Source of the DNA: a virus
Length of the DNA stretch: 13,459 bases
Virus genome (UHGV): UHGV-0077154
Reading direction: 5' to 3' (one strand)
A program made the translations under genes and the position numbers. Numbering within the stretch: position 1 is the stretch's first letter; each line of letters starts with the position of its first letter. The notes beneath the pieces are model-generated. The model saw only the letters and a list, made by a program, of their open reading frames with translations, made no database searches and had not been told where the DNA came from. This document shows, in pieces, positions 1 to 13,459 of the stretch.

Positions 1-54
1 GAACGAGAGCTTCCCAAGCTCTATACGAGGGTTCGATTCCCTTCGCCCGCTCCA
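1..54 (+). tRNA. glyU: 3' portion of tRNA-Gly (anticodon CCC), truncated by the window edge; also the tRNA side of attL
   Basis: GAACGAGAGCTTCCCAAGCTCTATACGAGGGTTCGATTCCCTTCGCCCGCTCCA matches my memory of the 3' two-thirds of E. coli glyU. Anticodon stem AGAGC/GCTCT with loop TTCCCAA (anticodon CCC at 13-15), T-arm GGTTCGATTCC, encoded CCA ending at 54. The 5' part lies outside the window. Confidence 0.9.
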
Positions 55-61
55 GTCTCCT
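2..61. repeat. attL copy of the direct repeat (tRNA-Gly 3' end plus 7 nt downstream)
   Basis: Identical to 13376-13435. Similarity continues for 24 more nt with 3 mismatches (62-85 vs 13436-13459). Base 1 (g) continues the authentic tRNA body (..TAGAACGAG). Confidence 0.9.
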
Positions 62-621
62 GATAAATCAACAAGTTATGATTTATCAGTTAGTTACGTT
101 GCCCCGCTTTAGCAGGTACAACTTAAACTACCCATTGTTCTACGCCCGCACCTGTCGCGTGATTGGTCTGTGGTACAAGGGAGCATATCATCACGCTGGC
201 GGTGGTTCCAAGTTCTTACCGCGACAGTACAACAACGAACAAAAAGCCGCATACCTGGCATAACTCCCGAACTGATTGATCACACGCATTTAAGCCCGAT
301 GTGTGGCCCTATGAGCCACGTAAACAGGTGAATAGTGGTAATGCCCCGGTAGCTACAGATCCGGCTCTGCCAGCGCTTCGCTCACGCTCCGAAAGGTACA
401 CGAGCACCCTGATAAGGTGTGATCCATCTGACAATCTGATGATGTCGCTACGCTCCGCTTGTTGCTTGTACCACTAACGGGGCTTTATGGTTTCTATTGA
501 CTTAAATTAGATAGTTGCAAGGAAATAAACTAAGGATAATTTAAGTGTTGAGCGGTTTACTCATACTGCTTGAGGGCAGTATCATTACAACATTAATGGG
601 ATTTTTAAGGGACTGATGTGA

Positions 622-1257
622 ATGGCTGAGTATCATCCTGCGGTATTTAATGCTGAGGCTTTTAACTGTCCTTACTGCGGTGTATATGCCCGTCAGTTCT
701 GGCGCAATTTGTTTGGTAGCGGAAATGCGTTGGCAACTGTTGCGACTGCGTTCCGTATGTCAACATGTTCTCATTGTGATGAAGATTCTTATTGGTATGA
801 GGGCAATATGATGGTCCCTGCTGCTGGAAATGTGGAACTACCTAGTCCTGACATGCCTGAAGACTGCAAGTTCGACTATATGGAAGCAAGAAGCATCGTT
901 AATCTGTCCCCTAAAGGTGCTGCTGCACTCCTTCGCCTGAGTCTGCAAAAACTGATGGTCCACCTTGGCGAACCGGGTAAACATATTGACACGGACATAA
1001 AATCTCTCGTGGCTAAAGGCTTGTCTCCGTTGGTCCAAAGAGCCGCAGATATTTGTCGCATTGTCGGTAATCAGGCTGTTCACCCCGGAGAAATTAATCT
1101 TGATGATGACCCGCAATTAGCACATGGCCTCTTCAAATTACTGAATATTATTGTCACGGAACAAATTACCAGACCCAAAGAGGTTGAAAAGATGTTCAAT
1201 AGTATGCCTGAAAGGGCGTTGAAGGGTATTGAAAACAGAGATAAACCTAAAACTTAA
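622..1257 (+). CDS. Zn-ribbon + DUF4145-like (HEPN-related?) protein, 211 aa; candidate defence/abortive-infection cargo
   Basis: ATG at 622 is preceded by AAGGGA (607-612). The N-terminus has paired CxxC motifs (CPYC...CSHC). The C-terminal helical region [11 protein letters not shown]...IKSLVAKG...[16 protein letters not shown] fits the DUF4145 signature (R..GN.A.H) as I remember it. A possible promoter is TTGCAA (515-520), 16-bp spacer, TAATTT (537-542). Confidence 0.7.
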
Positions 1258-1261
1258 ACTG

Positions 1262-1277
1262 AGGGGCTTAAGCCCCT
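1262..1277. terminator. Perfect 16-bp palindrome AGGGGCTTAAGCCCCT between convergent genes (possible bidirectional terminator)
   Basis: GC-rich hairpin lying between the stop of 622-1257 (+) and the stop of 1283-2101 (-). The flanking T/A runs are short (TTTA downstream), so strength is uncertain. Confidence 0.45.
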
Positions 1278-1282
1278 TTAGA

Positions 1283-2101
1283 TTATTCAGAAAACCAAAT
1301 TTCTGGCCGTCTAAACTCCTTATTCTCAATAAAAAACAGAATATCTTTCCAGGCTTCTTCATTTTCTTCCCAGAATTTTTGTTTTTCATTCATTGTAAGG
1401 ACTTTACTATCATCTATTAACTTCTTGAGAATAGCAGGGATATCTTTATAGGGTTTTTTCCAGAAGGCATTACGTAATTCTTCAATTTCTGCATTTGCAT
1501 CCCGAACGGGTTTTAGAAGTTCAAGCTGTTTTTCTGTATCGGTAATAGGTTTATTTCCAACCCACTGATGATAGATTTTGCTAGCTTCTTCATGATGACC
1601 CCGAAGAATTGTTATTATTGTTTTTGAGAGTAACGAGCACATGTCAAAAGTAGTAAAGTAAAACCAATCGTGTTTGATTGCGGTTAATTCATCTTTTTTA
1701 ACCCCTATTTGTTCAAGTTCACTCGAAATTGAAGATACTAATTTATAAAGATCTTTGTTTGATGTTGCTGTATCTAGGCGTCCGGTTCTGGAGGCTAATG
1801 AAATAGCTACTTCAGAAATAGGTAAGGAAACTTTTCTTAAACTATCTAAAACTTTTTCAGCATCGTTAATAGTATCTCTTAATTTTGCCTCCATGCCTAA
1901 GAGCTTTATTTCATGCCATTCAAATTGAGTAAGTACCATCAACCCGAAGCCTGTTACAATGACAACAGTCCCTTCAGTTGCTCCTATTGTCAGAGTTACA
2001 ATTACACCAGCGCCTATAAGTAGCAATGCAATGAAAAACAAAAAATTCTTTATCCATTTATTTTTTAGCATATCACTGTCACCATTACGATTAAATTTCA
2101 T
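1283..2101 (-). CDS. AT-rich membrane protein, 272 aa, two N-terminal TM helices plus a helical cytoplasmic domain; function unknown
   Basis: Long uninterrupted ORF in very AT-rich DNA (19 G+C in the 60 nt at 1381-1440). Hydrophobic segments are FLFFIALLLIGAGVIVTLTIGA and VVIVTGFGLMVLTQF, and the remainder is charged and helical. The start is uncertain (ATG 2101 has no clear SD; the internal Met at codon 11 follows GGTGA). Confidence 0.75.
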   Translation of the reverse strand: MKFNRNGDSDMLKNKWIKNFLFFIALLLIGAGVIVTLTIGATEGTVVIVTGFGLMVLTQFEWHEIKLLGMEAKLRDTINDAEKVLDSLRKVSLPISEVAISLASRTGRLDTATSNKDLYKLVSSISSELEQIGVKKDELTAIKHDWFYFTTFDMCSLLSKTIITILRGHHEEASKIYHQWVGNKPITDTEKQLELLKPVRDANAEIEELRNAFWKKPYKDIPAILKKLIDDSKVLTMNEKQKFWEENEEAWKDILFFIENKEFRRPEIWFSE

Positions 2102-2124
2102 CCAATATGAAGTAAAGTAAGTAA

Positions 2125-2334
2125 CTATTTTTCGTTCTCTGATGCCTCAAACGTCTTGGAGTGAGGGCAGGACTGGGAGCGCGTCACCAGCGTGAACAGA
2201 TAAATGTTGCTTTCGTAAGTGCAAAGCCGTTTTCCGCCCTGTAACTCTTGTTCGTCGGGGTTGCTCATGGTGATTTTTCCTGCATGAGCCGCCAGCGGCA
2301 GCAGTGCCACAACAAATAGTAAAATTTTCTTCAT
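2125..2334 (-). CDS. Small secreted protein (about 69 aa) with a Sec signal peptide
   Basis: MKKILLFVVALLPLAAHA/GK is a classic n-h-c signal peptide with an AxA cleavage motif, and the mature part has two Cys. The ORF track starts at GTG 2340; I prefer ATG 2334. It lies 23 nt upstream of, and co-oriented with, the 272-aa gene. Confidence 0.55.
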   Translation of the reverse strand: MKKILLFVVALLPLAAHAGKITMSNPDEQELQGGKRLCTYESNIYLFTLVTRSQSCPHSKTFEASENEK

Positions 2335-3325
2335 TTCCACAACCTGCCCCGTAGGTGTCCCGGCTCTTTATCCTCCAAGTTTACATTCTCCTGTTGAAAA
2401 TATCCCCGGCTCTGTTGGTGATCTGCTAGACCGTCAGCCCAGGCCCTCGGTGAAAAGCGCTTTTCTTCGCCAAATATCGCTACGTTATGCCTTCAGCGAC
2501 ACGCCTCACTGCAACAAGCAGTGCAGTTACACAATGCTGCTTTGGGCTGAGGCAAGGGAGATAACTTGATGTTTTGAAGTGCCTCTGTTCACTAATTGTA
2601 CAACCATTTAACATATTGTATCTTATAAGTACTTGACTGGAATGGTCAGGTATTGCTTTTCGGAGCGTTGATGCGAAGCGGAGTACACAACAACGATTTG
2701 ATCAACAGAAGGAAAGCATTCGGGAGGATTTGAGGTGAGTTCTCTTGTTCAAGGATTTTGGATGAGTTTGTCCGGTCACCACACAATTTCAGGTTTCAGG
2801 CCTTTGAAGCTGCCAGCGCATCTAACACGATGAAAGAGCATTTTTCTCTTTATCAGCAGAAAAAGAGCTACTACGGCGACGTTACCACAACGGGGTGAAG
2901 AACTATCGTCACCTGGCGAAATTCTCCCGCCCTTGCAGGTCACGGATACGTACCTTTTCCCGCACCAGCGCAAGCCTTCTCACCAATAGCCCCGTATGCT
3001 CCACCAGAAGCGCTACAGCGCGTCATCTCCACACAATTGTAAACTACACACCCATAGCACAGCGCCCCGCTGAGAAGCTCTGACACGCCCAGAAATGGAT
3101 GGTTTTTCGTTGATTTTGCGAAGAAAATTAATTTTTTCGGTATGGAAGGGCGGATCGGTAAACTGGTTTGACACGCATTTGGTTGACATATTTAACGCAT
3201 CCAGCCCCTGCGCGGGTTCGTTGTGTATCCGATACCATAACGATCACCACACCACACAGGCGAGCCAGTGACAACAGACAGGATTTTCTAGCAATTAACC
3301 GCAATTAACAGGTATTAAAGCTCTA

Positions 3326-3697
3326 TTATTTCCCGCCGAAAATCCAACCGATGATGGCACCGATTATCGCAGAGCGGGTCTCACCTGCTGCTCCTTTGAG
3401 AACGTTAATAACTGCATCGCCTGCACCAGGTGCCTGCTGTTGAAGTAAATTCAAACCACGAGGTGTTAACTTGGCGGCGGTATCCATGTCGGTTGAAGAG
3501 ATTATCTCCGTGTAACCCATATCGCTGAGAGCCTGGAGTGTGTTGCAAAGCAGGTCAATCTGAGTTCTGTCTCCTCTGGGCTTCCAGCCGAAGTCTGAAA
3601 ATTCGAAAGAAGAGTAAGCCGGATAGTCCGCAAACAGTTTCACCAGGATTCCAGTTGCCATCTCGTTAAAGCTGTCTTTGCCTTGGACGAATTCCAT
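3326..3697 (-). CDS. 123-aa protein with a C-terminal hydrophobic Gly/Ile-rich anchor; transcribed divergently from the control region
   Basis: ATG at 3697 has an AGGA SD 6 nt upstream (minus-strand AAAAGGAAACATT-ATG). The composition looks protein-like. The C-terminus SAIIGAIIGWIFGGK looks like a tail anchor or glycine-zipper helix. Confidence 0.7.
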   Translation of the reverse strand: MEFVQGKDSFNEMATGILVKLFADYPAYSSFEFSDFGWKPRGDRTQIDLLCNTLQALSDMGYTEIISSTDMDTAAKLTPRGLNLLQQQAPGAGDAVINVLKGAAGETRSAIIGAIIGWIFGGK

Positions 3698-3820
3698 AAT
3701 GTTTCCTTTTGTTCACTGATTGAACGAGGTTACTTACTTACCGCTGGAAGTGCCAGCAAGAAGGGATGACGCTGTGCTGTTAATCACTAGGTGAGGGGGT
3801 GTCTTCTACCAGAGGGGAGG

Positions 3821-3915
3821 CCATTGGTAAAGAATCTTAACTAACGTTAGTAAAGATCCTTAACCAGCCATTAGTAAAGAATCTTAACTAACCATTGGTA
3901 AAGATACTTAACCGT
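3821..3915. repeat. Four tandem ~23-24 bp iterons (CCATTGGTAAAGAATCTTAACTAA-type)
   Basis: Copies start at 3821, 3845, 3868 and 3892: ccattggtaaagaatcttaactaa / cgttagtaaagatccttaaccag / ccattagtaaagaatcttaactaa / ccattggtaaagatacttaaccgt. They are contiguous with no spacers. Confidence 0.85.
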
Positions 3916-3917
3916 AC

Positions 3918-4468: not shown

Positions 4469-4897
4469 ATGGGGAAACCTGTTCTGTTCGATTTCTCGAG
4501 CGCCACTGCCTCAGAGATTGTCGCTGCAATCGATGCAAAAATTACCACAGCTCAAAATCTGCACGCCTTCCGCACTCGTATGGGTGGTGCCAAGAAAGCC
4601 GATAAGCTCTATCCAGCTACTCGCGAAGCACTGAACATCATTAAACGCCTGCGTCAGCAAGCGAAAGACGCAAAAATCATCCGGGATATTCTTAAACCGT
4701 ACTCAGCAGAGTTGGCAAAAGGCCGTGATGTTATGGAAATCATTGAACCAGTGCTGTCTGCCTGGCGTGTCTATTACGCCTCTCATGGCATTGGTTTGAT
4801 GAATGAGCAGATCCTCCTGTTGAAAATGATTGAGGCGGGCGGTGAACTCGAAGGTATTACCGGAAAACCCATTCCCGAACTGACCACAACCGAATAA
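4469..4897 (+). CDS. 142-aa helical protein of unknown function; first gene downstream of the triple promoter
   Basis: AGGAGA SD (4458-4463) lies 5 nt before the ATG. The composition is clean and protein-like. I recognise no motif. Confidence 0.8.
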   Translation: MGKPVLFDFSSATASEIVAAIDAKITTAQNLHAFRTRMGGAKKADKLYPATREALNIIKRLRQQAKDAKIIRDILKPYSAELAKGRDVMEIIEPVLSAWRVYYASHGIGLMNEQILLLKMIEAGGELEGITGKPIPELTTTE

Positions 4898-5078
4898 CCA
4901 TTCTCTTCTTTACGGTGCGAAGCACTTTACCAGAGGTAAACACCTCCGGTGCTATTAGCTTTACTCTGTTGGCAGCAACGCCACCAAACGAAATCGCCGT
5001 AAACACGGCTCCTTACCCCTGATCAATTCCATGATCGCAGGGGCGCACCCGCATATCTAACGCACAGGAGAGATGATT

Positions 5079-5264
5079 GTGAAACTGTCACTAGACGATG
5101 AAACATATGCAATTTTACGCGAAGAATCTGACCGTTTGGGGATGCCAGTTCCGAGGATGATCCGGAACATGTGCCAGAACCTGGCGAAACACATTCAGAA
5201 ACGCAATGAACAACCACTGACGAACCCACAGGGAGAACAACATGACAGAGACAGTAGAAGCTAA
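5079..5264 (+). CDS. Ribbon-helix-helix (CopG/Arc-type) DNA-binding protein, about 61 aa
   Basis: KLSLDDETYAILREESDRLGMPVPRMIRNMCQNLAKHI fits beta-strand/helix/helix RHH architecture. AGGAG (5066-5070) is 8 nt from GTG 5079 but only 2 nt from the ATG 5073 used by the ORF track. The 3' end overlaps the next gene by 23 nt. Confidence 0.65.
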   Translation: MKLSLDDETYAILREESDRLGMPVPRMIRNMCQNLAKHIQKRNEQPLTNPQGEQHDRDSRS

Positions 5265-5886
5265 TCTGCCAGACGAACAGGACGGCACTTTTGATCGCAA
5301 TTATACCGAGATTAAGCGCTTGAAAGTGTTGGTTGCCGACGATGGAACTAAAATTCCGTTCAGCGCGAACATGAAAGTAGTCTACGCCTACCTCTACACC
5401 TTCCAGACAAATAAAGAGCGGCGGAACTACCCTGAGCCAATTTATCCTAATATGGAAATAATCGCGTGGGAAAATGGCATTACTAAACCCACGGCGCAAA
5501 AGGCTGTGGATGATTTGATGCGGGCGGGGGTGTTGATTAAGGACCAAATTCAGGTTGGGAGCGGGTTTAAGTCCAACAATTACGTTGTGTTGAAACCCTC
5601 GAAAGTGGTGGCGCGTGGCGTCACTCCACCGCATCCAAATGCTTCTAAATATTCAACTGCCGAGGAGAGCGGTAAGAATGAACAAAAACGTGCTGTGGTG
5701 GAACCTGCCGCGCCTGTTGCTGGAAAACCAGACGGCATACCTGTTGTGGATATTCCTGTCGATGCTGATGTACCTGCCGATGATGATGCGGTGATCGGAG
5801 ACTTTAGTGATCCTTACCTTGATGCTGAAGTAAAAGAATGGCAGAAACAAAAACATAGTGGAGGATTGAATTGTGTGAACACGTAA
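5242..5886 (+). CDS. Winged-helix DNA-binding protein with an acidic/proline-rich C-terminal tail, 214 aa (possible origin-binding/initiator or regulator)
   Basis: GGGAG SD (5231-5235). The core VVYAYLYTF...MEIIAWENGITKPTAQKAVDDLMRAGVLIK looks like a wHTH of the plasmid/phage Rep-type helix-turn-helix family. The C-terminus PVVDIPVDADVPADDDAVIGDF looks disordered. Confidence 0.75.
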   Translation: MTETVEANLPDEQDGTFDRNYTEIKRLKVLVADDGTKIPFSANMKVVYAYLYTFQTNKERRNYPEPIYPNMEIIAWENGITKPTAQKAVDDLMRAGVLIKDQIQVGSGFKSNNYVVLKPSKVVARGVTPPHPNASKYSTAEESGKNEQKRAVVEPAAPVAGKPDGIPVVDIPVDADVPADDDAVIGDFSDPYLDAEVKEWQKQKHSGGLNCVNT

Positions 5887-6347
5887 GCGTTGAACTGACC
5901 GCAGATGAAGAACAAAAGCTATCTCGCCTTTTCTCCGTCCTGGAGAAACCGACATATAAATCCCGATCCAAACCTTCCGATCCGGAAACACAACGCAAAG
6001 CCCGTTTATTGCTTAATCGTGGATTTTCACCGCATATTGTCGCTAATACCCTAGATCTGCCGTTCGCTGAAGTCTGGCGGCTCGCACGTCAAAAACAAGC
6101 GGTGACCTGGGCGATGATGACACCGACAGCCCGGACAGAATTTGTCCGTGAAATGTGGTCACATCGGATGCACCCGGAACAGATCCGCAAGCGTTGCGAT
6201 GGTCTGTCATACGTCAGTCTGAGATATTACCTGCATAACGCCGGGATCACTGACGCTGAAATGTTGGGTTACTACCCAGACGTGTTCGTGAATATCTGCA
6301 AGCTGCCGACAGTGAAGAAGAAGCGCACTAAGTGTAAGGCCCGTTAG
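5871..6347 (+). CDS. 158-aa protein with two HTH-like segments and a basic C-terminus (regulator or packaging-specificity factor?)
   Basis: TTG start has a GGAGGA SD (5860-5865) 5 nt upstream and overlaps the previous gene by 16 nt. Candidate HTH segments are GFSPHIVANTLDLPFAEVWRLARQ and MHPEQIRKRCDGLSYVSLRYYLHNAG. The tail is KKKRTKCKAR. Confidence 0.7.
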   Translation: MCEHVSVELTADEEQKLSRLFSVLEKPTYKSRSKPSDPETQRKARLLLNRGFSPHIVANTLDLPFAEVWRLARQKQAVTWAMMTPTARTEFVREMWSHRMHPEQIRKRCDGLSYVSLRYYLHNAGITDAEMLGYYPDVFVNICKLPTVKKKRTKCKAR

Positions 6348-6414
6348 GGTGAACGTTAACGTTCATCACTTTGTGACCGGATCGCCAATCCAAATAATCC
6401 CACATCGGGAGCCA

Positions 6415-6531
6415 ATGAACTTTGAAGCAATCCTTTCTTACCTGCCCGTTGTCTGGCTGGCGTATCGCTGCGTCCGTGATGGGCTGATCCTACTTTGGAG
6501 ACACCATAAAAATGACATTGAACAGCATTAA
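6415..6531 (+). CDS. Possible 38-aa single-TM peptide (uncertain)
   Basis: Internal ATG 6415 follows GGGAG (6407-6411). The product MNFEAILSYLPVVWLAYRCVRDGLILLW is hydrophobic. It fills the gap between two coupled genes and overlaps the next start by 20 nt. The track's longer GTG-6349 version has no SD. Confidence 0.3.
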   Translation: MNFEAILSYLPVVWLAYRCVRDGLILLWRHHKNDIEQH

Positions 6532-6892
6532 AAATGCTCTGTTTGCCGCTATGCACGGCATGACACCGGAGGAATACGAACTCCAAAAGGCGCGGGACAA
6601 TCTCAAGAGCGTCACCGATAACTTTCTGGATCAACATCCGGAGTTGCTCAAATCAGCCTCGTCTGACACCCCCACGGATAAACGGGGCGAAGCCCTCTCG
6701 CCAATGCGAGACACCTTTGGTGCTGAACAACGGATTAAAAAATCTTTGGGCGCTGATAGCCGTCCGGCGGTAAGTCATACCGCTGATCACATCGATCCTG
6801 AAATGCTGGCGAAAGCTAAAGCAGCGGCTGCTGCTCTCGCAAAATCTGACCCTGATCGTTACGGCAATATCATCAAGCAGCAGGGGGTGTGA
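6512..6892 (+). CDS. 126-aa acidic/Ala-rich protein of unknown function, translationally coupled to the 715-aa gene
   Basis: GGAGA (6497-6501) lies upstream of the ATG. The stop TGA (6890-6892) overlaps the ATG at 6892 (TGATG). The sequence looks largely helical or disordered. Confidence 0.7.
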   Translation: MTLNSIKNALFAAMHGMTPEEYELQKARDNLKSVTDNFLDQHPELLKSASSDTPTDKRGEALSPMRDTFGAEQRIKKSLGADSRPAVSHTADHIDPEMLAKAKAAAAALAKSDPDRYGNIIKQQGV

Positions 6893-9036
6893 TGGCGAAT
6901 GGCAATATCATAGTGACTGAAACCGTAAACGAGGTGACATGGTCTGTCGATCGGACAGCCTTCGGTCGCGCCCTGAAAGCTGTTAAATCCATCAAGGCTG
7001 CTCATGAGAAACCAGCTAAGGCGCTTGAGAAGGCCCAGAAGCGGACCGTCCAGAGTGAAGGCAAAGCCGCACTAGCAGCAGCGAAAGCCCAGACAGCGAA
7101 GCTACGCCAGGCTGAACAATTGTCTAAACAGCAACAGAAACAAGCTCAGATACAAGCCAAAATGGAGCGGGACGCAGTAGCCCACGCCAATAAAATGACC
7201 TCATTACAGGCGCGTCAGTTATCCCAACAGGAACAGGCAGCACGTCAGAATGCCCGTTTAGCAGCAATATCTGAAAAGGTGAGACAGGCGAGTCGCTCCC
7301 GCGCGATGACCTACACCCCAAACATGGGCGGTCAACATTACGATCCTGGTCTTGTTTCCCGTCAGACTGACGCAATGAACCGTGGTCACGGCGCTGTTGC
7401 TGCCGACATCGCAGCCACCAAAAAGGCGATGGCCCTGGAGGAGAAGCGCCAGCGTGAGAAAGAGGCAGGACTTAAGCGTGAGGTGACTTATTACAACAGT
7501 TTGCGCCGTAGCGCTTTGACTCTGGCAAACGTGAACGGCGCTGACGTTGCAACCCGTTATAAAGCGATCAGTGCAGCAAAAGAGGCACTCAAAGCCCAGA
7601 AAGAAGAGCGTTATACGGTCGAAGAGACCCGTTTCGAAATGGCCCGTATCACTACAGAATTACGCAAGCAGGCTCGTCTGCAACAACGTATTACCCGTGA
7701 GCAGAAAGCCGCAGGTGTTCGTGCTGGTCGTGTACGCACAGAAAGCCGTGGTGGAAGTGTAGGTCTGGCTGCCGCTGGTGTTGTTGGTGGTGCGGCGTTA
7801 GTAGGTAGTATGGGCGTTTCTCGTGTTGGTCAGACCCTTCAGGGAAGCCTTGAGCGTTCTCGCGATGTGAAAAAACTCCAGCAGTATGGGATCAGCAACC
7901 TTGAGTTCGCAGCACTTCAGGATCTATCAATGAGCCGTGTTGGTTACTCACTGAGTGCTGACAAGCTGGCTGACCTCAACAAGGACACAACCGAAAAGGC
8001 CGGGGAATTGCTGAATACTGGCTCTTTCAAACGTAACAAGAAAACTGGACAGGTGAATTTCAGCGGCGGTGGTGAGTTTGCAGATATCATCAATAACGTA
8101 CTGACCTCCACCAACGGCAACCAGAAGGTAGCCCAAAAGGTGATCGGGGAACTGCAAAAACTGGATTTTCCAACATTTATCACTTATCTAAAGCAATTAC
8201 AGAAAACTTTCGGCTGGACTGATCGACAGGTGCGACACCTGGCCGAGGCTGTGAATGATGGTTCGGTCTTCCTCGAAGTGTTCAATGATGAGGGGCAGGG
8301 ACTTATCCAGCGTATGAATCAACTCGCTTCTGAAGGATGGACCCTATCTGATGCACAGCAGGCCAACCTTGATAAGCTGGCAGCTTTGGGTGCTGAGTAC
8401 AGTCGCGTGCAGATGTCGCTTGCTGACCACTTCAGCGCCAGCTTCGTGCAGGGTCTGGGAGAATATGCAGCTAATACTGACACTCTACGTCAGAAGATGA
8501 CTGGACTGATCCCAATTTCCGATGCTCTCGGCGTTGCCCTTGGTGAGCTAACCACCAACATTCTCTCCTTCGCTGGTCGAGTCGGTGAAGAACTCAAGAA
8601 AGGCGCGACACTGCCGGATGCAGTCTACAACACCGTAGTGGATGACTCTGCAAATAGCACCGCCGATTGGATTAAGGAAAAGACCGGATTTGATCCACGC
8701 AGCATCGGTCAGACGCTCAAACAGATTTACCCGTGGCTGGATAGTTTCGCTCCGAGCAATATCGGCTCAGGCACGGCGTATAACGATCCAGCGCTAGCGT
8801 TGAATGTTCCTGGTTTCAACTCAATACAACCCCAGCAACCAACGTTTACGATTCCGACAATTGACAGCATGACGCAGCGACAGCCGATTCCTGTTGCGGT
8901 CACTGGCGAAGCTGAGATTAAACTCTCACCGCTTGATATTAACGTGAATGACGGCGCTATTAACGGTTTGATTGATACAAAACTGAGGAGCTATGAGCAG
9001 GCACAGAACAACATGATCCTTGGTATTGCTCAATGA
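6892..9036 (+). CDS. 715-aa coiled-coil + glycine-zipper TM + tape-measure-like domain protein
   Basis: Roughly residues 30-290 are Q/A/K/R-rich heptad-like sequence. GGSVGLAAAGVVGGAALVGSMGV is a Gly-zipper hydrophobic segment. The next ~200 aa (LADLNKDTTEKAGELLNTGS...GGGEFADIINNV...LKQLQKTFGWTDRQVRHLAEAVNDGSVFLEVFNDEGQGL...LSDAQQANLDKL) resemble the conserved core of phage tail tape-measure proteins as I recall it. Confidence 0.8.
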   Translation: MANGNIIVTETVNEVTWSVDRTAFGRALKAVKSIKAAHEKPAKALEKAQKRTVQSEGKAALAAAKAQTAKLRQAEQLSKQQQKQAQIQAKMERDAVAHANKMTSLQARQLSQQEQAARQNARLAAISEKVRQASRSRAMTYTPNMGGQHYDPGLVSRQTDAMNRGHGAVAADIAATKKAMALEEKRQREKEAGLKREVTYYNSLRRSALTLANVNGADVATRYKAISAAKEALKAQKEERYTVEETRFEMARITTELRKQARLQQRITREQKAAGVRAGRVRTESRGGSVGLAAAGVVGGAALVGSMGVSRVGQTLQGSLERSRDVKKLQQYGISNLEFAALQDLSMSRVGYSLSADKLADLNKDTTEKAGELLNTGSFKRNKKTGQVNFSGGGEFADIINNVLTSTNGNQKVAQKVIGELQKLDFPTFITYLKQLQKTFGWTDRQVRHLAEAVNDGSVFLEVFNDEGQGLIQRMNQLASEGWTLSDAQQANLDKLAALGAEYSRVQMSLADHFSASFVQGLGEYAANTDTLRQKMTGLIPISDALGVALGELTTNILSFAGRVGEELKKGATLPDAVYNTVVDDSANSTADWIKEKTGFDPRSIGQTLKQIYPWLDSFAPSNIGSGTAYNDPALALNVPGFNSIQPQQPTFTIPTIDSMTQRQPIPVAVTGEAEIKLSPLDINVNDGAINGLIDTKLRSYEQAQNNMILGIAQ

Positions 9037-9132
9037 TGAAACAGAGGGTGGCGAATTCGTCGCCCCTATCTCAACACCACAATGCGTATGTATCAAATTT
9101 AGCGACAAATCAAATACTTTTCGTGAAATTTG

Positions 9133-9161
9133 TTGTAAATGATAATCATTCGTGTTAAAAT
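9133..9161 (+). promoter_or_regulatory. Candidate sigma70 promoter with extended -10, heading the capsid-gene leader
   Basis: -35 TTGTAA (9133-9138), 17-bp spacer, TGTTAAAAT (9153-9161; TGn + TAAAAT), inside an AT-rich stretch just after the 715-aa gene. Confidence 0.45.
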
Positions 9162-9511
9162 AATATACAAGGTGAATTACAACAGCCAAATGTTTTTCCC
9201 TTCTCCTTAGGAATCAAAGTGCGCTTTTCCCAGAGCGCCTTTTCTCATACAGCCAATATCCGCACCCTCTCACGGTAAGGTTAGGCCATTGCCGCTGGCT
9301 GTATCAGAAAAGCATCGCAGAGCGATTAGCCAGCAGGCTAACCCGTTCTCGTGTGTAGAAAATTTCCACCTAAGGTGGATTTGCCAAAAGTCCTGTCCTC
9401 CTCGGCGGGCTGTCAGCCGGACACTAACGGCATCAGGTGGCAACGTTTTTGGGTCTCCTTACCCATTCTTTGGAGCGTTGCCGCCTCCTCATTCCTACCA
9501 GTGAAATTCAC

Positions 9512-9542
9512 ACCGGACGACTCTCCGTCCGGTCACTTTTTT
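9512..9542 (+). terminator. Intrinsic terminator candidate t1 in the capsid leader
   Basis: Stem ACCGGACG (9512-9519) pairs with CGTCCGGT (9526-9533), loop ACTCTC. CAC follows, then a T6 run (9537-9542). Confidence 0.5.
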
Positions 9543-9557
9543 CATCGGAACAATTCT

Positions 9558-9610
9558 AAAGGCTGGCCCTGTCGCCGTTTACGGCTCAAGCAGGCGCTGG
9601 CCTTTTGTTT
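9558..9610 (+). terminator. Intrinsic terminator candidate t2 (long GC-rich compound hairpin + U-run) just before the capsid-gene RBS
   Basis: 9561-9571 pairs with 9591-9602 (one bulge, two G-U pairs), with an inner hairpin GCCG-TTTA-CGGC (9574-9585). AAA (9558-9560) can pair with the following T-run, and TTTTGTTT lies at 9603-9610. Confidence 0.55.
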
Positions 9611-9645
9611 ACATAGCTATGTGAAATTTAACGGGAGTTAATTAT

Positions 9646-9987
9646 ATGAAAATGGGAAGCCTTGAGCGCTCTTACAATGACGTGATCGCGTATGCAGCCG
9701 ATCCGAATTTTGACCGCAAGACTATTACTGTCGATCTAGCTGTAGAAGTCCAGCCGGGTAGTTGCATTACCAGCACTGGAGCTGCTTATGTCTCTGGTGA
9801 TGACTGCCTGCTGGTCCTGAGCCACCACAGGGCCGAAGATGCTGCTCATATCATCGTTGCTGATCGCGGGATTTACATCAAACAAGACACCATCACCGCT
9901 GTTATGGGCGCTACCGCTGGCGCTAATGCTATTGCCGCACTCACCAAAACGGGCGCAATCCGTACTAGCGCACCGGACGCAGAATAA
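9646..9987 (+). CDS. Head decoration protein, lambda gpD-like, 113 aa
   Basis: GGGAG SD (9633-9637) is 8 nt from the ATG. Size, position immediately upstream of the gpE-like gene, and the pattern ...GDDCLLVLSHHRAEDAAHIIVADRGIYIKQDTI...TGAIRTS parallel lambda gpD (...[31 protein letters not shown]...GTAISIV, from memory). Confidence 0.6.
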   Translation: MKMGSLERSYNDVIAYAADPNFDRKTITVDLAVEVQPGSCITSTGAAYVSGDDCLLVLSHHRAEDAAHIIVADRGIYIKQDTITAVMGATAGANAIAALTKTGAIRTSAPDAE

Positions 9988-10005
9988 TAATAAGGAGAAG
10001 ACAAC

Positions 10006-11040
10006 ATGGGACTATCAACCAATTTCAGCTACGCGGATTACACCAACACCTTTGTGAACATGGATGCAAAGAACACTTTGCTGTCCACGCTTAATGTTTT
10101 CAGTGATCGTCAGACTTCTGCAAGTCCGAAGGTGAGCCTCGATATCATTGATGAAGTCGCTCAGAAGGTGGCAAGCTCTGTTAATCGTTACGGTTCAGAG
10201 TGGTCAACCATTCCTAAGCGTAGCGCTAGCAATCACCTGATTGAAGCTCCACTTTATGCTTTTCAAGACCGGATTACAGCGGCAGACGTGCAACCATATC
10301 GCAAACCAGGCTCCGACCTGCAAATGTCTGTAATGGATGCGGTCACTTCTTCTGCTGTCGCAATGCACGATAAGTACATGCGTACTAAAGAGAAAATTTT
10401 CGCTGACGCACTCTTCCGAAATACTGTCGAAGCGACCTACACCCAGCAGCCGATCATTTCCTGGGAAGATGAATTTGGATACCAACAGGCAACCGGAACG
10501 ATCAAAACCAGCGTTAGCTCTGGTGACCCACTTCGCAGCCTCGATGATGCAGTAACCGCTGCTAAAGTGCGCATGGGGGGCCTGGCTGGTCAGCTTGATG
10601 GATTTATCCTGTTTGCAGGTAGCAATGTTTATCGCGGCATTAAGTATCACCCTGATGTTCGTCAGAATGTTCAGTTCGGTGTGCTTGATCGGGATGTTCT
10701 GTTTAATAAAGAAGTGCTTCCGGCATTCTCAACATTCATCATTGAAAATGTTCGAGTGGTGGAGGTCACGGATCAGGCACTTTACGGAATTGGTCCGGAT
10801 GAATCCTTCCTGGTTCCACGTTTCAGCCGCCCACTGTCCTCTGATATTGCTCTACCTTTCGGTTATGTAGCAACGGCTACCAGCCGCAATCTTGATCTGG
10901 CATTTGCTGATCCGGTTGATTTCCGTATCTGGAGCGTACAGGACAAGTTTAAGAACGTGGAGCTATTCGCGGAAAGCTCAATCTTGCCTGTGGTGTACCG
11001 TCCGGATTTCGTTACAAAACTGACGAACGACGCAGCGTAA
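10006..11040 (+). CDS. Major capsid protein, lambda gpE family-like, 344 aa
   Basis: AAGGAGAA SD. The length is close to lambda gpE (341 aa). It sits directly after a D-like gene. The C-terminal ...ESSILPVVYRPDFVTKL resembles gpE ...SAPLMLLADPDEFVSVQL (from memory). Confidence 0.75.
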   Translation: MGLSTNFSYADYTNTFVNMDAKNTLLSTLNVFSDRQTSASPKVSLDIIDEVAQKVASSVNRYGSEWSTIPKRSASNHLIEAPLYAFQDRITAADVQPYRKPGSDLQMSVMDAVTSSAVAMHDKYMRTKEKIFADALFRNTVEATYTQQPIISWEDEFGYQQATGTIKTSVSSGDPLRSLDDAVTAAKVRMGGLAGQLDGFILFAGSNVYRGIKYHPDVRQNVQFGVLDRDVLFNKEVLPAFSTFIIENVRVVEVTDQALYGIGPDESFLVPRFSRPLSSDIALPFGYVATATSRNLDLAFADPVDFRIWSVQDKFKNVELFAESSILPVVYRPDFVTKLTNDAA

Positions 11041-11121
11041 GACAGCGGATTTTGGGGCTGACTATTTGGCCCCACCGTGAAGAATGGCCTGAAAAGGCGA
11101 GGCAAAGAAGAGGTGATTACT

Positions 11122-11325
11122 ATGAAAATTCAATTTCAGACTAACAACGGCTTCCCGTTGCTGACAGTTGCAGACGAGCGCGTTTTAGATTTTCTGAACG
11201 TTAGCGCAGTGTGTCGGTTCCTGAAGGTTCCGCGTTCCTCGTTCATGATGGACGTTGAGCAATACGGGCTTGAAAAGGCAATCAGTGAAGCCCTGCTGAA
11301 GTTAAGAAAGAATAAAAATTGTTAA
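11122..11325 (+). CDS. 67-aa HTH protein (AlpA/excisionase-like DNA-binding protein?)
   Basis: ATG 11122 follows GAGGTG (11110-11115). LNVSAVCRFLKVPRSSFMMDVEQYG resembles the MerR-type/excisionase HTH pattern. The upstream GTG-11077 extension in the track lacks an SD. Confidence 0.55.
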   Translation: MKIQFQTNNGFPLLTVADERVLDFLNVSAVCRFLKVPRSSFMMDVEQYGLEKAISEALLKLRKNKNC

Positions 11326-11509: not shown

Positions 11510-11719
11510 ATGAACTTTGATATGCGTACAAACCAAAATTGTGCATCTTTTTTTAACCCAGCAACCAAGGCGTTTGTCGTCGTCGATTCGTTTGACAACT
11601 ACGAGTTCGATGTTCGTGCTGGTACTTTATCACGCACTGAATTTGTAGGCACAATCACAGCTTCGAACGATGAAGAGTTGAACAAGAAATTAGCTGAGAT
11701 CACGGCTGCTCATATATGA
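11510..11719 (+). CDS. 69-aa protein, first gene of an overlapping pair (unknown; antitoxin-like position)
   Basis: Strong AGGAGG SD (11499-11504) lies 5 nt before the ATG. The stop overlaps the next start (ATGA at 11716-11719). The gene is AT-rich. Confidence 0.7.
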   Translation: MNFDMRTNQNCASFFNPATKAFVVVDSFDNYEFDVRAGTLSRTEFVGTITASNDEELNKKLAEITAAHI

Positions 11720-12090
11720 TAACTCAACAGCAAATTGATGATTTAGTTGCAGATATTAACGATATCTTAGAAGAAGATAGAGCTAGACTGAAGATGTCAT
11801 TTCATTTTGCTGTTGATAGACTCAATGATCAGCGTAACAAACCTCCAATCACGCTAGATGAATTGAGAGTGATTTTTACAAATTTCATTGAACAACACTT
11901 GCAGACCATTTTAGGCAAAGATGAGGGGTTCTCCTTCACTATTAAGTGCCAGAAATCAGGTATTGCTATACCTTGCGCCATAGAGCATGAACTTGAGATT
12001 GGTGCAACGTGGGTAGTACAGCAAGTGATCACCATCATGCGGAATCCGAACTTTAACCCATACCATGGTGATGTCATCTTCGAAATCTAA
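11716..12090 (+). CDS. 124-aa protein, second gene of the overlapping pair (unknown; toxin/effector-like position)
   Basis: Translationally coupled by the ATGA overlap and followed directly by a strong terminator. I recognise no motif. Confidence 0.7.
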   Translation: MITQQQIDDLVADINDILEEDRARLKMSFHFAVDRLNDQRNKPPITLDELRVIFTNFIEQHLQTILGKDEGFSFTIKCQKSGIAIPCAIEHELEIGATWVVQQVITIMRNPNFNPYHGDVIFEI

Positions 12091-12092
12091 GT

Positions 12093-12118
12093 AAAAAGGC
12101 GCAATAGCGCCTTTTTTT
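12093..12118. terminator. Bidirectional intrinsic terminator shared by the cassette and int
   Basis: AAAAA-GGCGC-AATA-GCGCC-TTTTTTT: a 5-bp GC stem (12098-12102 / 12107-12111) flanked by an A5 run and a T7 run. The int stop codon (12117-12119) lies in the T-run. Confidence 0.8.
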
Positions 12119-13313
12119 ACAAATCCGGATAACACGCCAACTCGACATACTCCGATAGTTCCTTCATCCCTGGCCCTTTGCTGTAGGTTCTGAATGCTTC
12201 GGTTTTCGCTTTTTGTTCGGTATGTCCAGTGATGGCTCCGATCCGTTGTTCTGGCACCCCTGCACGGTCTAAGCAGGTGATGAACATTCCCCGTAAGCTG
12301 TGAAAACATTGCCGATCTGTAGCGGTTGGCAATGTGCTGTCACGTAGCCGGGTAAACTTTTGGCTGTACCACGGACCCCGCTTACCATCCTTCCGAATGA
12401 TGTTATTAGACTGAGCCAGAAGATATTCACCGCTGTTATTTGCCAGATGCTTATCAACAATCCCCATCAGCAGCGAGTGGATCGGAACATACCGCACCCC
12501 GGCTACAGTCTTGGACTTGCTGACAAAGAAACATCTGACACCCTCCAACATTACAATTTCATCCCGCTTGATGCTGGCGATCTCATCAAGTCGCATTCCT
12601 GAATACAGCCCAATCAGTATGACATCGCGTAGAACGTCATCCGCTTCTCTGACAAGTGTTTGCAATTGTTCAGGTTCAAACGGCTGATAACTTTCTATCG
12701 TGCGACGTGCTTCGAGGTTATGACCGTGAAACGGGTTACTGTCGGGGATTGCGTCATATCGACGTTTGGCGAACTCGTACAGACTCCCTAAAGAGGTTAG
12801 CCAGTTTTGCACGGTCTGCGGTGCTGCCTTTTTCTGTTGGCCTTCAATGAAGTCTGTAACCGTTCTGCGTCCTATCTTGTTCAGACTAATATCAACTTTA
12901 CCGATACTCTGGAGAAATACTTCCACCGCTCGCGCGGATTTGCTGAGTGTGGAAAATGCCCGACGTTCACTATAAACCGTCATGTATTCATCACGGATGA
13001 CTGCCAACGTTGGGATAGGGGAGACTGCTACAGGCGTACTCTTGGCCTGTTTGATTGTGGTGTGGAGTGTGGTGATCGCATTCTGGATGCGAATGTCTTC
13101 CCGATCAGGATTCAACAGGGCTTTCAGATTGTTGAACTCAATCAACATGTGATTTCTGAAGTGACGAGCCTTAAGGATGTCTTTTGTCCCGGTGGATTTT
13201 CGCCAGGCTCGTTTGTTGTCAAACAGGTGACGCATGTACGCAGGTACAAAGACCTGAAAGATCCATACGCCCGAATGACTTTGAAAAAGATACTGATTGT
13301 TCTTGATAGACAT
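12117..13313 (-). CDS. int: Tyrosine recombinase / phage-type integrase, 398 aa
   Basis: Catalytic signature visible: ...YSGMRLDEI (Arg), HSLRGMF (His-x-x-Arg), ITGHTE (His), FRTYSKG (Tyr). It sits next to attR with its 5' end facing the tRNA-derived repeat. Confidence 0.95.
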   Translation of the reverse strand: MSIKNNQYLFQSHSGVWIFQVFVPAYMRHLFDNKRAWRKSTGTKDILKARHFRNHMLIEFNNLKALLNPDREDIRIQNAITTLHTTIKQAKSTPVAVSPIPTLAVIRDEYMTVYSERRAFSTLSKSARAVEVFLQSIGKVDISLNKIGRRTVTDFIEGQQKKAAPQTVQNWLTSLGSLYEFAKRRYDAIPDSNPFHGHNLEARRTIESYQPFEPEQLQTLVREADDVLRDVILIGLYSGMRLDEIASIKRDEIVMLEGVRCFFVSKSKTVAGVRYVPIHSLLMGIVDKHLANNSGEYLLAQSNNIIRKDGKRGPWYSQKFTRLRDSTLPTATDRQCFHSLRGMFITCLDRAGVPEQRIGAITGHTEQKAKTEAFRTYSKGPGMKELSEYVELACYPDL

Positions 13314-13375: not shown

Positions 13376-13435
13376 AACGAGAGCTTCCCAAGCTCTATAC
13401 GAGGGTTCGATTCCCTTCGCCCGCTCCAGTCTCCT
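13376..13435. repeat. attR copy of the direct repeat: displaced 3' fragment of tRNA-Gly (13376-13428) plus 7 nt; not a functional tRNA
   Basis: Identical to 2-61. The sequence upstream (..GGGATGGAGT) diverges from the tRNA body (..AATGGTAG), so the acceptor 5' strand and D-arm are missing. Confidence 0.9.
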
Positions 13436-13459
13436 CATAAATTAACAAGTTATAATTTA

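Follow-up and report, generated by a model that had tools for sequence, protein, structure and literature searches.

A small integrative phage satellite of Enterobacterales encoding homologues of myophage capsid, decoration and tape-measure proteins

Known phage satellites either reshape the capsid protein of their helper by means of a scaffold or carry a whole head module. P4 and PLE, which like the element described here are small satellites, end in small capsids by acting on the helper capsid protein via an external scaffold, and encode no capsid protein of their own. PLE parasitises the virulent myophage ICP1, the capsids being ~50 nm instead of ~80 nm (PMC10945586). The cf-PICIs encode a capsid protein, protease, portal, head-tail connectors, TerS, TerL and HNH (PMC10690885; PMC13612085). 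Part of a morphogenetic module, as in the present element, is also carried by the Streptomyces satellites MulchRoom and MiniFlayer and by the archaeal SRCEs. The former differ from the present element in carrying terminases, portal, capsid protein, scaffold and adapter, while the SRCEs may have no more of one than a capsid protein and/or an ATPase; they belong to spindle-shaped archaeal viruses, and their capsid proteins are unrelated.

The DNA analysed here, a stretch of 13,459 nt from the virus genome UHGV-0077154 (the window), was found to be a single complete element of 13,374 bp flanked by 84-nt tRNA-Thr att repeats, as the original prediction of a small integrative satellite-like element had supposed. 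The left direct repeat (attL, 2..85, + strand), containing the 3' part of tRNA-Thr, is 96% identical to the second copy (attR, 13376..13459, + strand; repeat family D1), which was defined by repeat and Rfam analysis. The Rfam match to the tRNA at positions 1-51 was truncated on its 5' side, the start of the tRNA gene lying just left of the window. A relative in E. coli sits between the proA/tRNA-Thr locus and yagU, and the element was present between tRNA-Thr and yagU in 32 of 5,426 complete E. coli genomes, carriers including 2016C-3878, MRY15-117 and LWY24. The att-to-att length was 11.9-13.6 kb, with or without a 2.1-kb tape-measure gene, a narrow range showing the pattern expected from a capsid-capacity limit within a sample of only six elements. 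Of the features general to phage satellites, small size, att sites, an integrase, own replication functions and an incomplete set of virion genes were found. We regard the window as a complete copy of an integrative phage satellite from an apparently undescribed Enterobacterales family. No published description of such elements was found in the literature, and no experiment or virome record was found that shows induction, packaging or particles for this satellite family.

The original prediction had centred on a pair of genes resembling D and E of lambda. The two adjacent ORFs were indeed present on the + strand at 9646..9987 and 10006..11040, each with a good Shine-Dalgarno sequence ~8 nt 5' of its ATG (GGGAG and AAGGAG, respectively). 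Both genes are real and under purifying selection (dN/dS of 0.08-0.39 for the first and 0.03-0.08 for the second), and the order of decoration gene and then capsid gene was kept in all relatives examined. The 344-aa product of the second gene is a major capsid protein of the Phage_cap_E family. In the HMM comparison proposed earlier, PF03864 was matched at 52.6 bits (E=4.6e-14), above its gathering score of 22.9, and the match covered the whole length, residues 15-340 being aligned with model positions 8-328 of 329; PHROG 29 'major head protein' was matched as well. The protein has no N-terminal delta/scaffold domain. Its best solved relatives were the phiTE capsid protein (6e-6), phi92 gp124 and the ICP1 coat protein 8G1R; it aligned end to end with the phiTE capsid protein 9cul_G and was ~21% identical to a Vequintavirinae capsid protein. 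No sequence match to lambda gpE was obtained at E<=1. As the AlphaFold2 model, built from a 23-sequence family alignment, had a mean pLDDT of 46.6, the fold is assigned here from sequence profiles only.

The 113-aa product of the first gene had been expected to match the head-decoration-D family. This was not the case, since no Pfam match at E<=1, including HDPD (PF02924), and no PHROG match were obtained for the window protein; a 36%-identical orthologue from a sister clade matched HDPD below the threshold (E=5.9e-4, 20.4 bits vs 29.1). The proposed structural comparison with gpD was more favourable. The AlphaFold2 model (pLDDT 73) retrieved almost only capsid decoration proteins in Foldseek, with phiTE DEC, phage 21 SHP, Sf14 and lambda gpD as the top matches (probability 0.9-0.99, TM ~0.5). 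In hhalign, a profile of the decoration family could also be aligned with the corresponding proteins of phiTE, BIS47, ICP1 and FBKp34 across 99 columns (probability 90%, E=1.6e-6). Modelling and profiles together assign the protein a predicted gpD-like beta-tulip fold and homology to known cement proteins. A satellite-encoded decoration protein is also known from P4, whose Psu resembles the cement gene of the window in this respect.

With lambda gpD/gpE the pair has the gene order, the Pfam family of the capsid protein and similar lengths in common, whereas gpE and HDPD gave no direct match and the rest of the element contains nothing lambdoid. The predicted likeness to lambda thus held for the types of protein and their order, not for the best solved relatives, which belong to phiTE (Vequintavirinae) and then to phi92/ICP1. 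Judged by these comparisons, the pair resembles most closely the DEC/MCP of virulent ~140-kb myophages (phiTE, phi92, ICP1), not lambda D/E. The same order, families and sizes were seen in phiTE (DEC phiTE_212 and MCP phiTE_213), BIS47_48/47, FBKp34 179/178 and ICP1 gp123/gp122. In phages of the rV5/phiTE/phi92/ICP1 lineage, the genes are arranged as TerL, portal, XkdF-type protease, scaffold, DEC and MCP. In contrast to the ~140-kb genomes of Vequintavirinae, Stephanstirmvirinae and ICP1-type phages, where portal, XkdF protease and a 330-450-aa scaffold adjoin the pair, the satellite has the pair alone on a 13.4-kb integrated element. Its decoration protein also differs in lacking the C-terminal extension of phiTE DEC (113 aa vs 149 aa).

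The element had been thought to bring only shell and cement, which proved incorrect, as a homologue of tail tape-measure proteins (715 aa; 6889..9036, + strand) is encoded just upstream. The assignment is made by homology, from matches to PHROG tape-measure families and alignments to phage tape measures; the corresponding protein of a sister element matched Pfam TMP_3. The tape measure of the Mydovirus BIS47 (Vequintavirinae), whose gene is located between tail chaperone and baseplate genes, showed ~70% identity over residues 6-46 of the satellite protein and 28% over residues 640-713, and that of the Stephanstirmvirinae phage FBKp34 showed 31% over residues 312-569. The gene was present in about half of the relatives, and the window contains no other tail gene. 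Alignments and profiles showed the decoration, capsid and tape-measure proteins to be distant homologues of proteins of rV5/phiTE/phi92/ICP1-lineage myophages. The origin of the best relatives in phiTE, then phi92/ICP1, and the failure to find gpE made a lambdoid helper unlikely, and this candidate was rejected because the three structural proteins all indicate the myophage lineage. The better guess, made from the homology of the three proteins and most strongly from the 40-residue N-terminal stretch of the tape measure, is a large virulent rV5/phiTE-type myophage of enterobacteria. ICP1, the host phage of PLE, is of the same capsid lineage as this presumed helper.

The predicted absence of portal and protease was borne out in the window and in ~20 related loci from >10 enterobacterial genera, across which the gene order is conserved, and terminase was missing there as well. 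No window ORF matched a portal, protease, scaffold or terminase family in Pfam, PHROG or NCBIfam, the only ORF long enough for a portal being that of the 715-aa tape-measure homologue, and no portal, prohead protease or terminase was found in the related loci. Neither a pac or cos site nor a small terminase was identified, and none of the relatives found had a full head module. As for the scaffold, also predicted to be missing, none was detectable in the window, but the corresponding gene slot of relatives (6512-6892 in the window) encodes the N-terminal motif of a scaffold. In the window this 'adapter' slot (6512..6892, + strand), aligned across 12 loci, holds a first variant of 126 aa. A second variant, seen in relatives such as the E. 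coli element L001, shares its N-terminal motif with the ICP1 gp124 / phiTE_211 scaffold; ICP1 gp124 has been shown by experiment to be an internal scaffold. The motif, GIAxCHxxQGYSANxRPxSLLxK, was found in the slot of L001, L012, L013 and L022-L025 and was absent from the 126-aa protein of the window. By hhalign, the second variant matched phiTE_211 at 97% (E=6e-11) and ICP1 gp124 at 97.5% (E=8e-12), whereas the first variant gave negative results with phiTE_211 and the FBKp34 scaffold and aligned weakly with the second in the first 40 residues alone (E=0.0023, probability 12.6%). The presence of the motif in the slot protein of relatives indicates that the family is not blind to scaffolding.

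Upstream of the capsid genes, a conserved region with promoter, leader and terminator was recognised (9131..9545, + strand). It comprises a conserved sigma-70-like extended -10 promoter at ~9131-9161, a leader of ~380 nt, and an intrinsic terminator (9512-9533 and a T-run); a second hairpin lies at 9561-9605. This arrangement would be compatible with read-through control of the capsid operon. Rfam gave no match in the 600-bp leader. A Seunavirus non-coding region had 33 nt in common with the leader, and likewise gave no Rfam match.

The remaining genes include a tyrosine integrase (12117..13313, - strand; Pfam DUF6538 and Phage_integrase, PHROG 1) and a replication-initiator-like protein (5242-5886, + strand; PHROG 270/391 replication initiation; its E. 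coli homologue bears the RefSeq name DUF6945). The latter is small and initiator-like, unlike the alpha-type primase-helicase of P4. The rightward core operon begins with a gene for a 142-aa protein (4469..4897, + strand) that is kept in all relatives; tblastn matches at 32-99% identity were obtained in 15 loci, and no family matched in Pfam, PHROG or PADLOC. The operon also contains two genes conserved in position (5871..6531, + strand), whose products of 158 aa and 60 aa had no significant family match. A small RHH-like protein with a weak Pfam RHH_1 match is encoded at 5073-5264 (+ strand), and a small conserved gene (11077..11325, + strand) stands 3' of the capsid gene in most relatives. 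Four tandem iteron-like repeats of ~24 nt (3820..3916; repeat family D2) in the divergent intergenic region are a candidate origin or operator. When the remaining element proteins were compared by tblastn with 50,697 phage records, matches were confined to two accessory genes at 11510-12090, and no phage relatives of the replication and regulatory genes appeared among these records. The accessory cargo includes a PD-T7-4 anti-phage defence protein (622..1257, + strand; PADLOC PD-T7-4 over the full length, E=4e-98; Pfam DUF4145), and other satellites carry defence genes as well.

In having its own capsid protein and no complete head module, the element differs both from Sid/Cpm-type redirection and from the cf-PICIs, as anticipated. 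The cf-PICIs are likewise integrative, with their own capsid protein and the remaining part of the virion from the helper; of their head and packaging set, the satellite has none except the capsid protein, with no portal, protease, connectors, TerS/TerL or HNH in the window or among the genes called in its relatives. Pfam and PHROG searches found none of the proteins expected of a P4-like satellite (Sid, Psu, Delta, alpha-type primase-helicase) and no TcaP-like protein. With regard to classical PICIs, the integrase is present, AlpA and primase had no match in Pfam or PHROG, and structural genes are present.

With slightly better than even confidence, we infer that the satellite builds a private small capsid on a borrowed portal, protease, terminase and tail. 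Upon infection by an rV5/phiTE-type phage, the satellite would replicate from its own initiator and express the capsid operon, possibly depending on terminator read-through in the conserved leader. Its capsid protein would assemble on the helper portal with the helper protease and scaffold, and in relatives the small adapter copying the N-terminal motif of the scaffold may assist. The resulting private shell would be smaller than the T=13 head of the helper, with T=3 or T=4 and ~45-55 nm as the predicted size, and would be cemented by the satellite decoration protein. The helper terminase would fill it with satellite DNA (about 12-13.5 kb), and a helper tail, assembled on the satellite tape measure where one is present, would be attached. 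Capsid protein and portal normally co-evolve (bioRxiv 10.1101/2025.02.15.638363). At a capsid identity of ~21%, compatibility with the portal, scaffold and protease of the helper can only be presumed.

The lack of any detected packaging function would also fit an element that interferes with the phage instead of exploiting it, with the capsid, decoration and tape-measure proteins serving as dominant-negative decoys of a defence island that spreads by other means. By joining the assembly of helper portal, scaffold, capsid or tail parts, or by titrating them, such decoys would abort phage production. The element already carries a defence gene, and the small protein of relatives copies the N-terminal scaffold motif alone, as a competitive inhibitor would. 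However, a full-length capsid protein under such constraint (dN/dS 0.03-0.08), paired with its cement in >10 genera, exceeds the needs of a poison, and the narrow range of lengths suits a packaged transferable genome, as do the integrase, att sites and replication module. We consider this explanation unlikely, and interference and self-packaging can coexist in known satellites. Quite improbable in our judgement is co-polymerisation of satellite and helper capsid proteins, for example at pentamer or particular hexamer positions, into chimeric shells of smaller triangulation number. The capsid proteins of the satellite and the helper lineage are of the same family and length and align end to end, and the helper scaffold would still be needed; nevertheless, 21% identity makes quasi-equivalent contacts in a mixed lattice seem unlikely, and a cement protein of its own suggests three-fold sites of its own. 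We know of no precedent for a capsid lattice mixed from satellite and helper proteins.

Very little credence is given to two further explanations. The gene set is incomplete for a virion, as it would be in a decaying prophage or a cf-PICI remnant that had lost portal, protease and terminase and kept the capsid genes as leftovers. Against this stand the same minimal order in ~20 loci from >10 genera, the intact ORFs, att repeats and integrases, the strong purifying selection and the absence of a full head module from all relatives found; a prophage remnant was rejected on conservation and selection. Hardly more credible is a helper-independent protein compartment, an encapsulin-like or procapsid-like shell unrelated to DNA transfer, although a link to encapsulins has been proposed through small temperate HK97-fold elements that lack both portal and tail (bioRxiv 10.1101/2025.06.18.659913). 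The capsid protein falls in the E family of tailed phages and not in an encapsulin-like group, and the tape measure with its helper-matching termini and the scaffold-motif protein of relatives tie the element to the assembly of tailed virions.

Extended beyond the window, the private-capsid reading would describe a widespread unnamed family of rV5/phiTE-type satellites, whose shell and cement are nucleated on the helper portal via interchangeable adapters mimicking the scaffold N-terminus, and some of which replace the helper tape measure within the tail taken from the helper. This wider proposal is plausible, and we place it somewhat short of an even chance. If true, it would represent a third strategy between capsid redirection (P4, SaPI, PLE) and full capsid formation (cf-PICI), the first case in which use of a foreign portal is the regular life-style of a capsid protein, and the first satellite-encoded tape measure; the cf-PICIs, to our knowledge, carry none. 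Shell and cement alone would show that a capsid protein is separable from its own portal, protease and terminase, while the tape measure or scaffold-motif adapter of some members would give additional contacts with the helper. A satellite family directed at virulent ~140-kb myophages would also be added. Such phages are in wide use as components of therapeutic cocktails for E. coli, Klebsiella, Salmonella and Enterobacter, and the family would be relevant to failure of phage therapy, to gene transfer, with a defence gene aboard, and to the engineering of small capsids.

The family is common enough for direct testing. An index of 5.8 billion proteins, queried first with the capsid protein and next with its profile, yielded nothing outside the family itself; the wider superfamily, which for the capsid protein comprised 95 representatives at 50% identity, came into view only with an exhaustive representative search. 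Scanning IMG/VR with the more distant capsid proteins P0070 and P0071 gave no match; four loci were found in IMG/VR, uninformative about packaging. In Klebsiella and Serratia, members of sister clades number in the hundreds. The contigs of two relatives, L024 and L025, were non-circular, and their ends were formed by 20-nt att-like repeats.

At 2-85 and 13376-13459, the window was bounded by 84-nt direct repeats that were 96% identical and included the 3' part of tRNA-Thr; it therefore corresponded exactly to a single integrated unit of 13,374 bp. Together with a tyrosine integrase gene at 12117-13313 (minus strand), these repeats demonstrated a mobile, integrase-bounded element. A 92-94% identical element was located in E. 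coli between the proA/tRNA-Thr locus and yagU, and was found in 32 of 5,426 complete genomes. The window's element also bore an RHH-like gene and a replication-initiator-like gene, and four tandem iteron-like repeats of ~24 nt each (3820-3916), overlapping a palindrome between divergent genes ahead of the core operon, were a candidate origin or operator. The left arm (622-3697), variable among relatives, appeared to hold accessory or defence cargo and encoded a full-length PD-T7-4 anti-phage defence protein (DUF4145; 622-1257, plus strand; PADLOC E=4e-98). Two accessory genes at 11510-12090 (plus strand; PHROG 14630 and 14518) were the only element genes with phage relatives besides the structural homologues; they were 52-58% identical to genes of Escherichia phage Phi05_1387 B and Klebsiella phage Kp4865-1, and one of them matched a gene of the jumbo Erwinia phage Kaldavass.

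The original prediction had described a lambda gpD-like and gpE-like pair of adjacent ORFs with Shine-Dalgarno sequences. Indeed, ORFs of 113 aa (9646-9987) and 344 aa (10006-11040) were present on the plus strand, preceded ~8 nt upstream of their start codons by GGGAG and AAGGAG, respectively. In the proposed profile search, the 344-aa protein matched Pfam Phage_cap_E over its full length (E=4.6e-14, far over the gathering threshold); it also matched PHROG 29 'major head protein'. By sequence, the closest solved structure was that of the Pectobacterium phage phiTE capsid protein (9cul_G, E=6e-6), and further solved relatives were phi92 gp124 and 8g1r_A, the coat protein of ICP1 in a procapsid-like particle of the ICP1 satellite PLE (PMC10945586). 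Residues 6-340 aligned with 5-327 of 9cul_G; as the alignment began at residue 5-6 of both proteins, the 344-aa protein has no N-terminal delta/scaffold domain.

The 113-aa protein had no match in Pfam, PHROG or NCBIfam, and its family was narrow (37 clusters, Enterobacterales only). The search proposed against the decoration family thus failed for the window protein itself and gave a sub-threshold Pfam HDPD match (E=5.9e-4) for a 36% identical sister-clade orthologue. An AlphaFold2 model with 32 family members as input (mean pLDDT 73; average 75-90 in the core blocks, residues 21-100) had phiTE DEC (decoration protein), phage 21 SHP, Sf14, lambda gpD and Bas63 as its best 15 Foldseek matches in the PDB (probability up to 0.99, TM ~0.5). 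When the family profile was compared with that of the phiTE, BIS47, ICP1 and FBKp34 decoration proteins, the probability was 90% (E=1.6e-6, 99 columns). The pair was accordingly named correctly in kind; lambda gpE itself was absent among the solved-structure sequence matches of the capsid protein at E<=1. Against relatives at a synonymous divergence of 0.1 to >2, the capsid gene had a dN/dS of 0.03-0.08 and the decoration gene one of 0.08-0.39, demonstrating that the pair is conserved and under selection and that both genes are functional.

The shell and cement proteins were not the only structural products, contrary to the original prediction. The ORF at 6889-9036 (715 aa), the sole one in the window big enough for a portal, matched PHROG tape-measure families, and tblastn revealed a mosaic of genuine tape measures. 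Residues 5-50 showed 63-69% identity to the N-termini of tape measures from ~140-kb Vequintavirinae, including Klebsiella BIS47 and Proteus Mydo, and residues 312-569 showed 31% identity to that of the phi92-like phage FBKp34; the BIS47 and FBKp34 genes are flanked by tail chaperone and baseplate hub genes. In pairwise alignment, residues 6-46 and 640-713 (E=6e-4) corresponded to the two termini of the BIS47 tape measure (802 aa). The N- and C-terminal ends of a tape measure are the parts that must fit the remainder of the tail. No window ORF matched a portal, prohead protease, scaffold, terminase, connector or other tail family, demonstrating that the remainder of the head and tail was absent.

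Related loci were retrieved via the capsid protein from Citrobacter, Enterobacter, Pseudenterobacter, Buttiauxella, Winslowiella, Dryocola, Raoultella, Rahnella, Biostraticola, Klebsiella and a Plesiomonas-like source. They had one gene order in common: a ~142-aa gene, a small RHH gene, a variable replication gene, a 160-210-aa gene, a ~60-aa gene, a 100-150-aa 'slot' gene, an optional tape measure (580-720 aa), a 600-700-bp non-coding gap, the decoration gene (110-114 aa), the capsid gene (338-347 aa) and a 70-90-aa gene. Portal, protease and terminase genes were found in none of these loci. The tape measure was present in the window, L001 (E. coli), L006 and L009-L012, and missing in L004/5, L013 and L015-L017. 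At E<=1e-3, an exhaustive capsid profile search yielded 95 cluster representatives (clustering at 50% identity). The next capsid clades, 25-33% identical, were chromosomal with hundreds of members in Serratia, Klebsiella, Citrobacter, Yersinia and Plesiomonas, and the two sister clades examined (L022-L025) had the same architecture.

Both att copies were located in six elements, with unit lengths of 13,374 bp (window), 13,578 bp (L001), 12,410 bp (L015), 13,117 bp (L017), 12,397 bp (L021) and 11,927 bp (L024). Although the 2.1-kb tape-measure gene was absent from three of the six, lengths still fell within 11.9-13.6 kb; this narrow range whatever the gene content, in a small sample, is what a capsid-capacity limit would produce. 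When volume-scaled from a T=13 head of 142 kb, ~12-13 kb would fit a T=3 or loosely filled T=4 shell. PLE forms ~50 nm capsids compared to ~80 nm for ICP1 (PMC10945586).

The head module of the large virulent myophages phiTE, BIS47, FBKp34 and ICP1 consists of TerL, portal, protease, a 330-450-aa protein, DEC and the major capsid protein (MCP). phiTE belongs to Vequintavirinae (142 kb, T=13), and its asymmetric unit contains 13 MCP and 13 beta-tulip DEC (PMC11972413). The gene phiTE_210 (L026 7424-7999), labelled DNA methyltransferase, matched Pfam Peptidase_S78_2 (XkdF-type prohead protease, E=1.5e-14). Given this match and its location, with the portal gene on one side and the scaffold gene on the other, the label is likely wrong. 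The 330-450-aa protein is the scaffold: scaffolding activity of ICP1 gp124 was demonstrated in a heterologous assembly system (PMC10945586), phiTE_211 has an N-terminal motif in common with it, and the FBKp34 homologue was labelled 'possible scaffold protein' by the FBKp34 authors.

This motif was also found in the slot gene, which occurred in two variants. Variant 2, carried by L001, Buttiauxella L012, Winslowiella L013, Klebsiella L022/23 and L024/25 (in the last after the non-coding gap), contained GIAxCHxxQGYSANxRPVSLLMK, corresponding to the N-termini of BIS47_49 (45% identity over 58 residues), PHROG 2970, phiTE_211 (hhalign 97%, E=6e-11) and ICP1 gp124 (97.5%, E=8e-12). The window gene (6512-6892) was variant 1, which lacked the motif, matched neither the scaffolds tested nor any phage protein, and had at most the first ~40 residues in common with variant 2 (hhalign E=0.0023, probability 12.6%). 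The predicted absence of a recognisable scaffold thus applied to the window and not to the family, in which relatives of the window carry a mimic of the scaffold N-terminus; a scaffold-derived module is part of the family's toolkit. The slot variant was uncorrelated with capsid clade or tape-measure presence, suggesting modular swapping.

As all three structural proteins were homologous to one lineage of large virulent myophages, we infer that such phages are the helpers on which the element depends as a satellite. A lambdoid helper is unlikely for the same reason. A prophage remnant would also lack most head and tail genes, and is unlikely for a pair under selection in a common gene order; an encapsulin-like compartment is unlikely for a capsid protein of the E family that is accompanied by a tape measure and, in relatives, by a scaffold-motif protein. 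The satellite would build its own small shell using the portal, protease and scaffold of the helper, the helper terminase would fill this shell, and the filled shell would be joined to a helper tail. The main rival is that the capsid, decoration and tape-measure proteins act chiefly as assembly poisons; it is compatible with assembly of a satellite shell.

Published satellite classes (P4-like, PICI, cf-PICI, PLE, PICMI and Streptomyces satellites; PMC10690885, PMC13612085, PMC10945586) have either no capsid protein or a whole head and packaging module, whereas the window's element has the capsid-decoration pair with no portal or terminase. A full-text literature search of incomplete coverage turned up no satellite described with such a set of genes, and an earlier description elsewhere is possible. 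The family is common and experimentally tractable, and would imply a capsid protein operating with a foreign portal.

The 609-bp gap upstream of the decoration gene (9037-9645) opened with a sigma-70-like extended -10 promoter block, kept even in the sister superfamily. Downstream of it came a ~380-nt leader with partly covarying hairpins (compensatory changes in 12 of 34 predicted pairs, seven sequences). The leader was followed by a strong intrinsic terminator (9512-9533, then a T-run) and a further hairpin that may be a second terminator. The gap matched no Rfam family. With such an arrangement, the capsid operon may be switched on by read-through or antitermination, and 9131-9605 (plus strand) could function as a leader under antitermination control or as a small RNA. 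A 33-nt leader segment with two hairpins (9314-9346), absent from L001, matched Seunavirus (Vequintavirinae) genomes at 31 of 33 positions (Salmonella phage PVP-SE1, L028 3001-3032; E=4e-3 against 2.3 Gb); the matching site lies in a 2.2-kb non-coding region that gave no tRNA or Rfam match. In Klebsiella L022, an IS (rve transposase; 8092-9177) was inserted in the leader gap between the tape-measure and decoration genes. Another hairpin, flanked by T/A runs (12060-12117) between the convergent gene 11716-12090 and the integrase gene, gave a weak sub-threshold match to Rfam STnc40 and is most likely no more than a bidirectional terminator.
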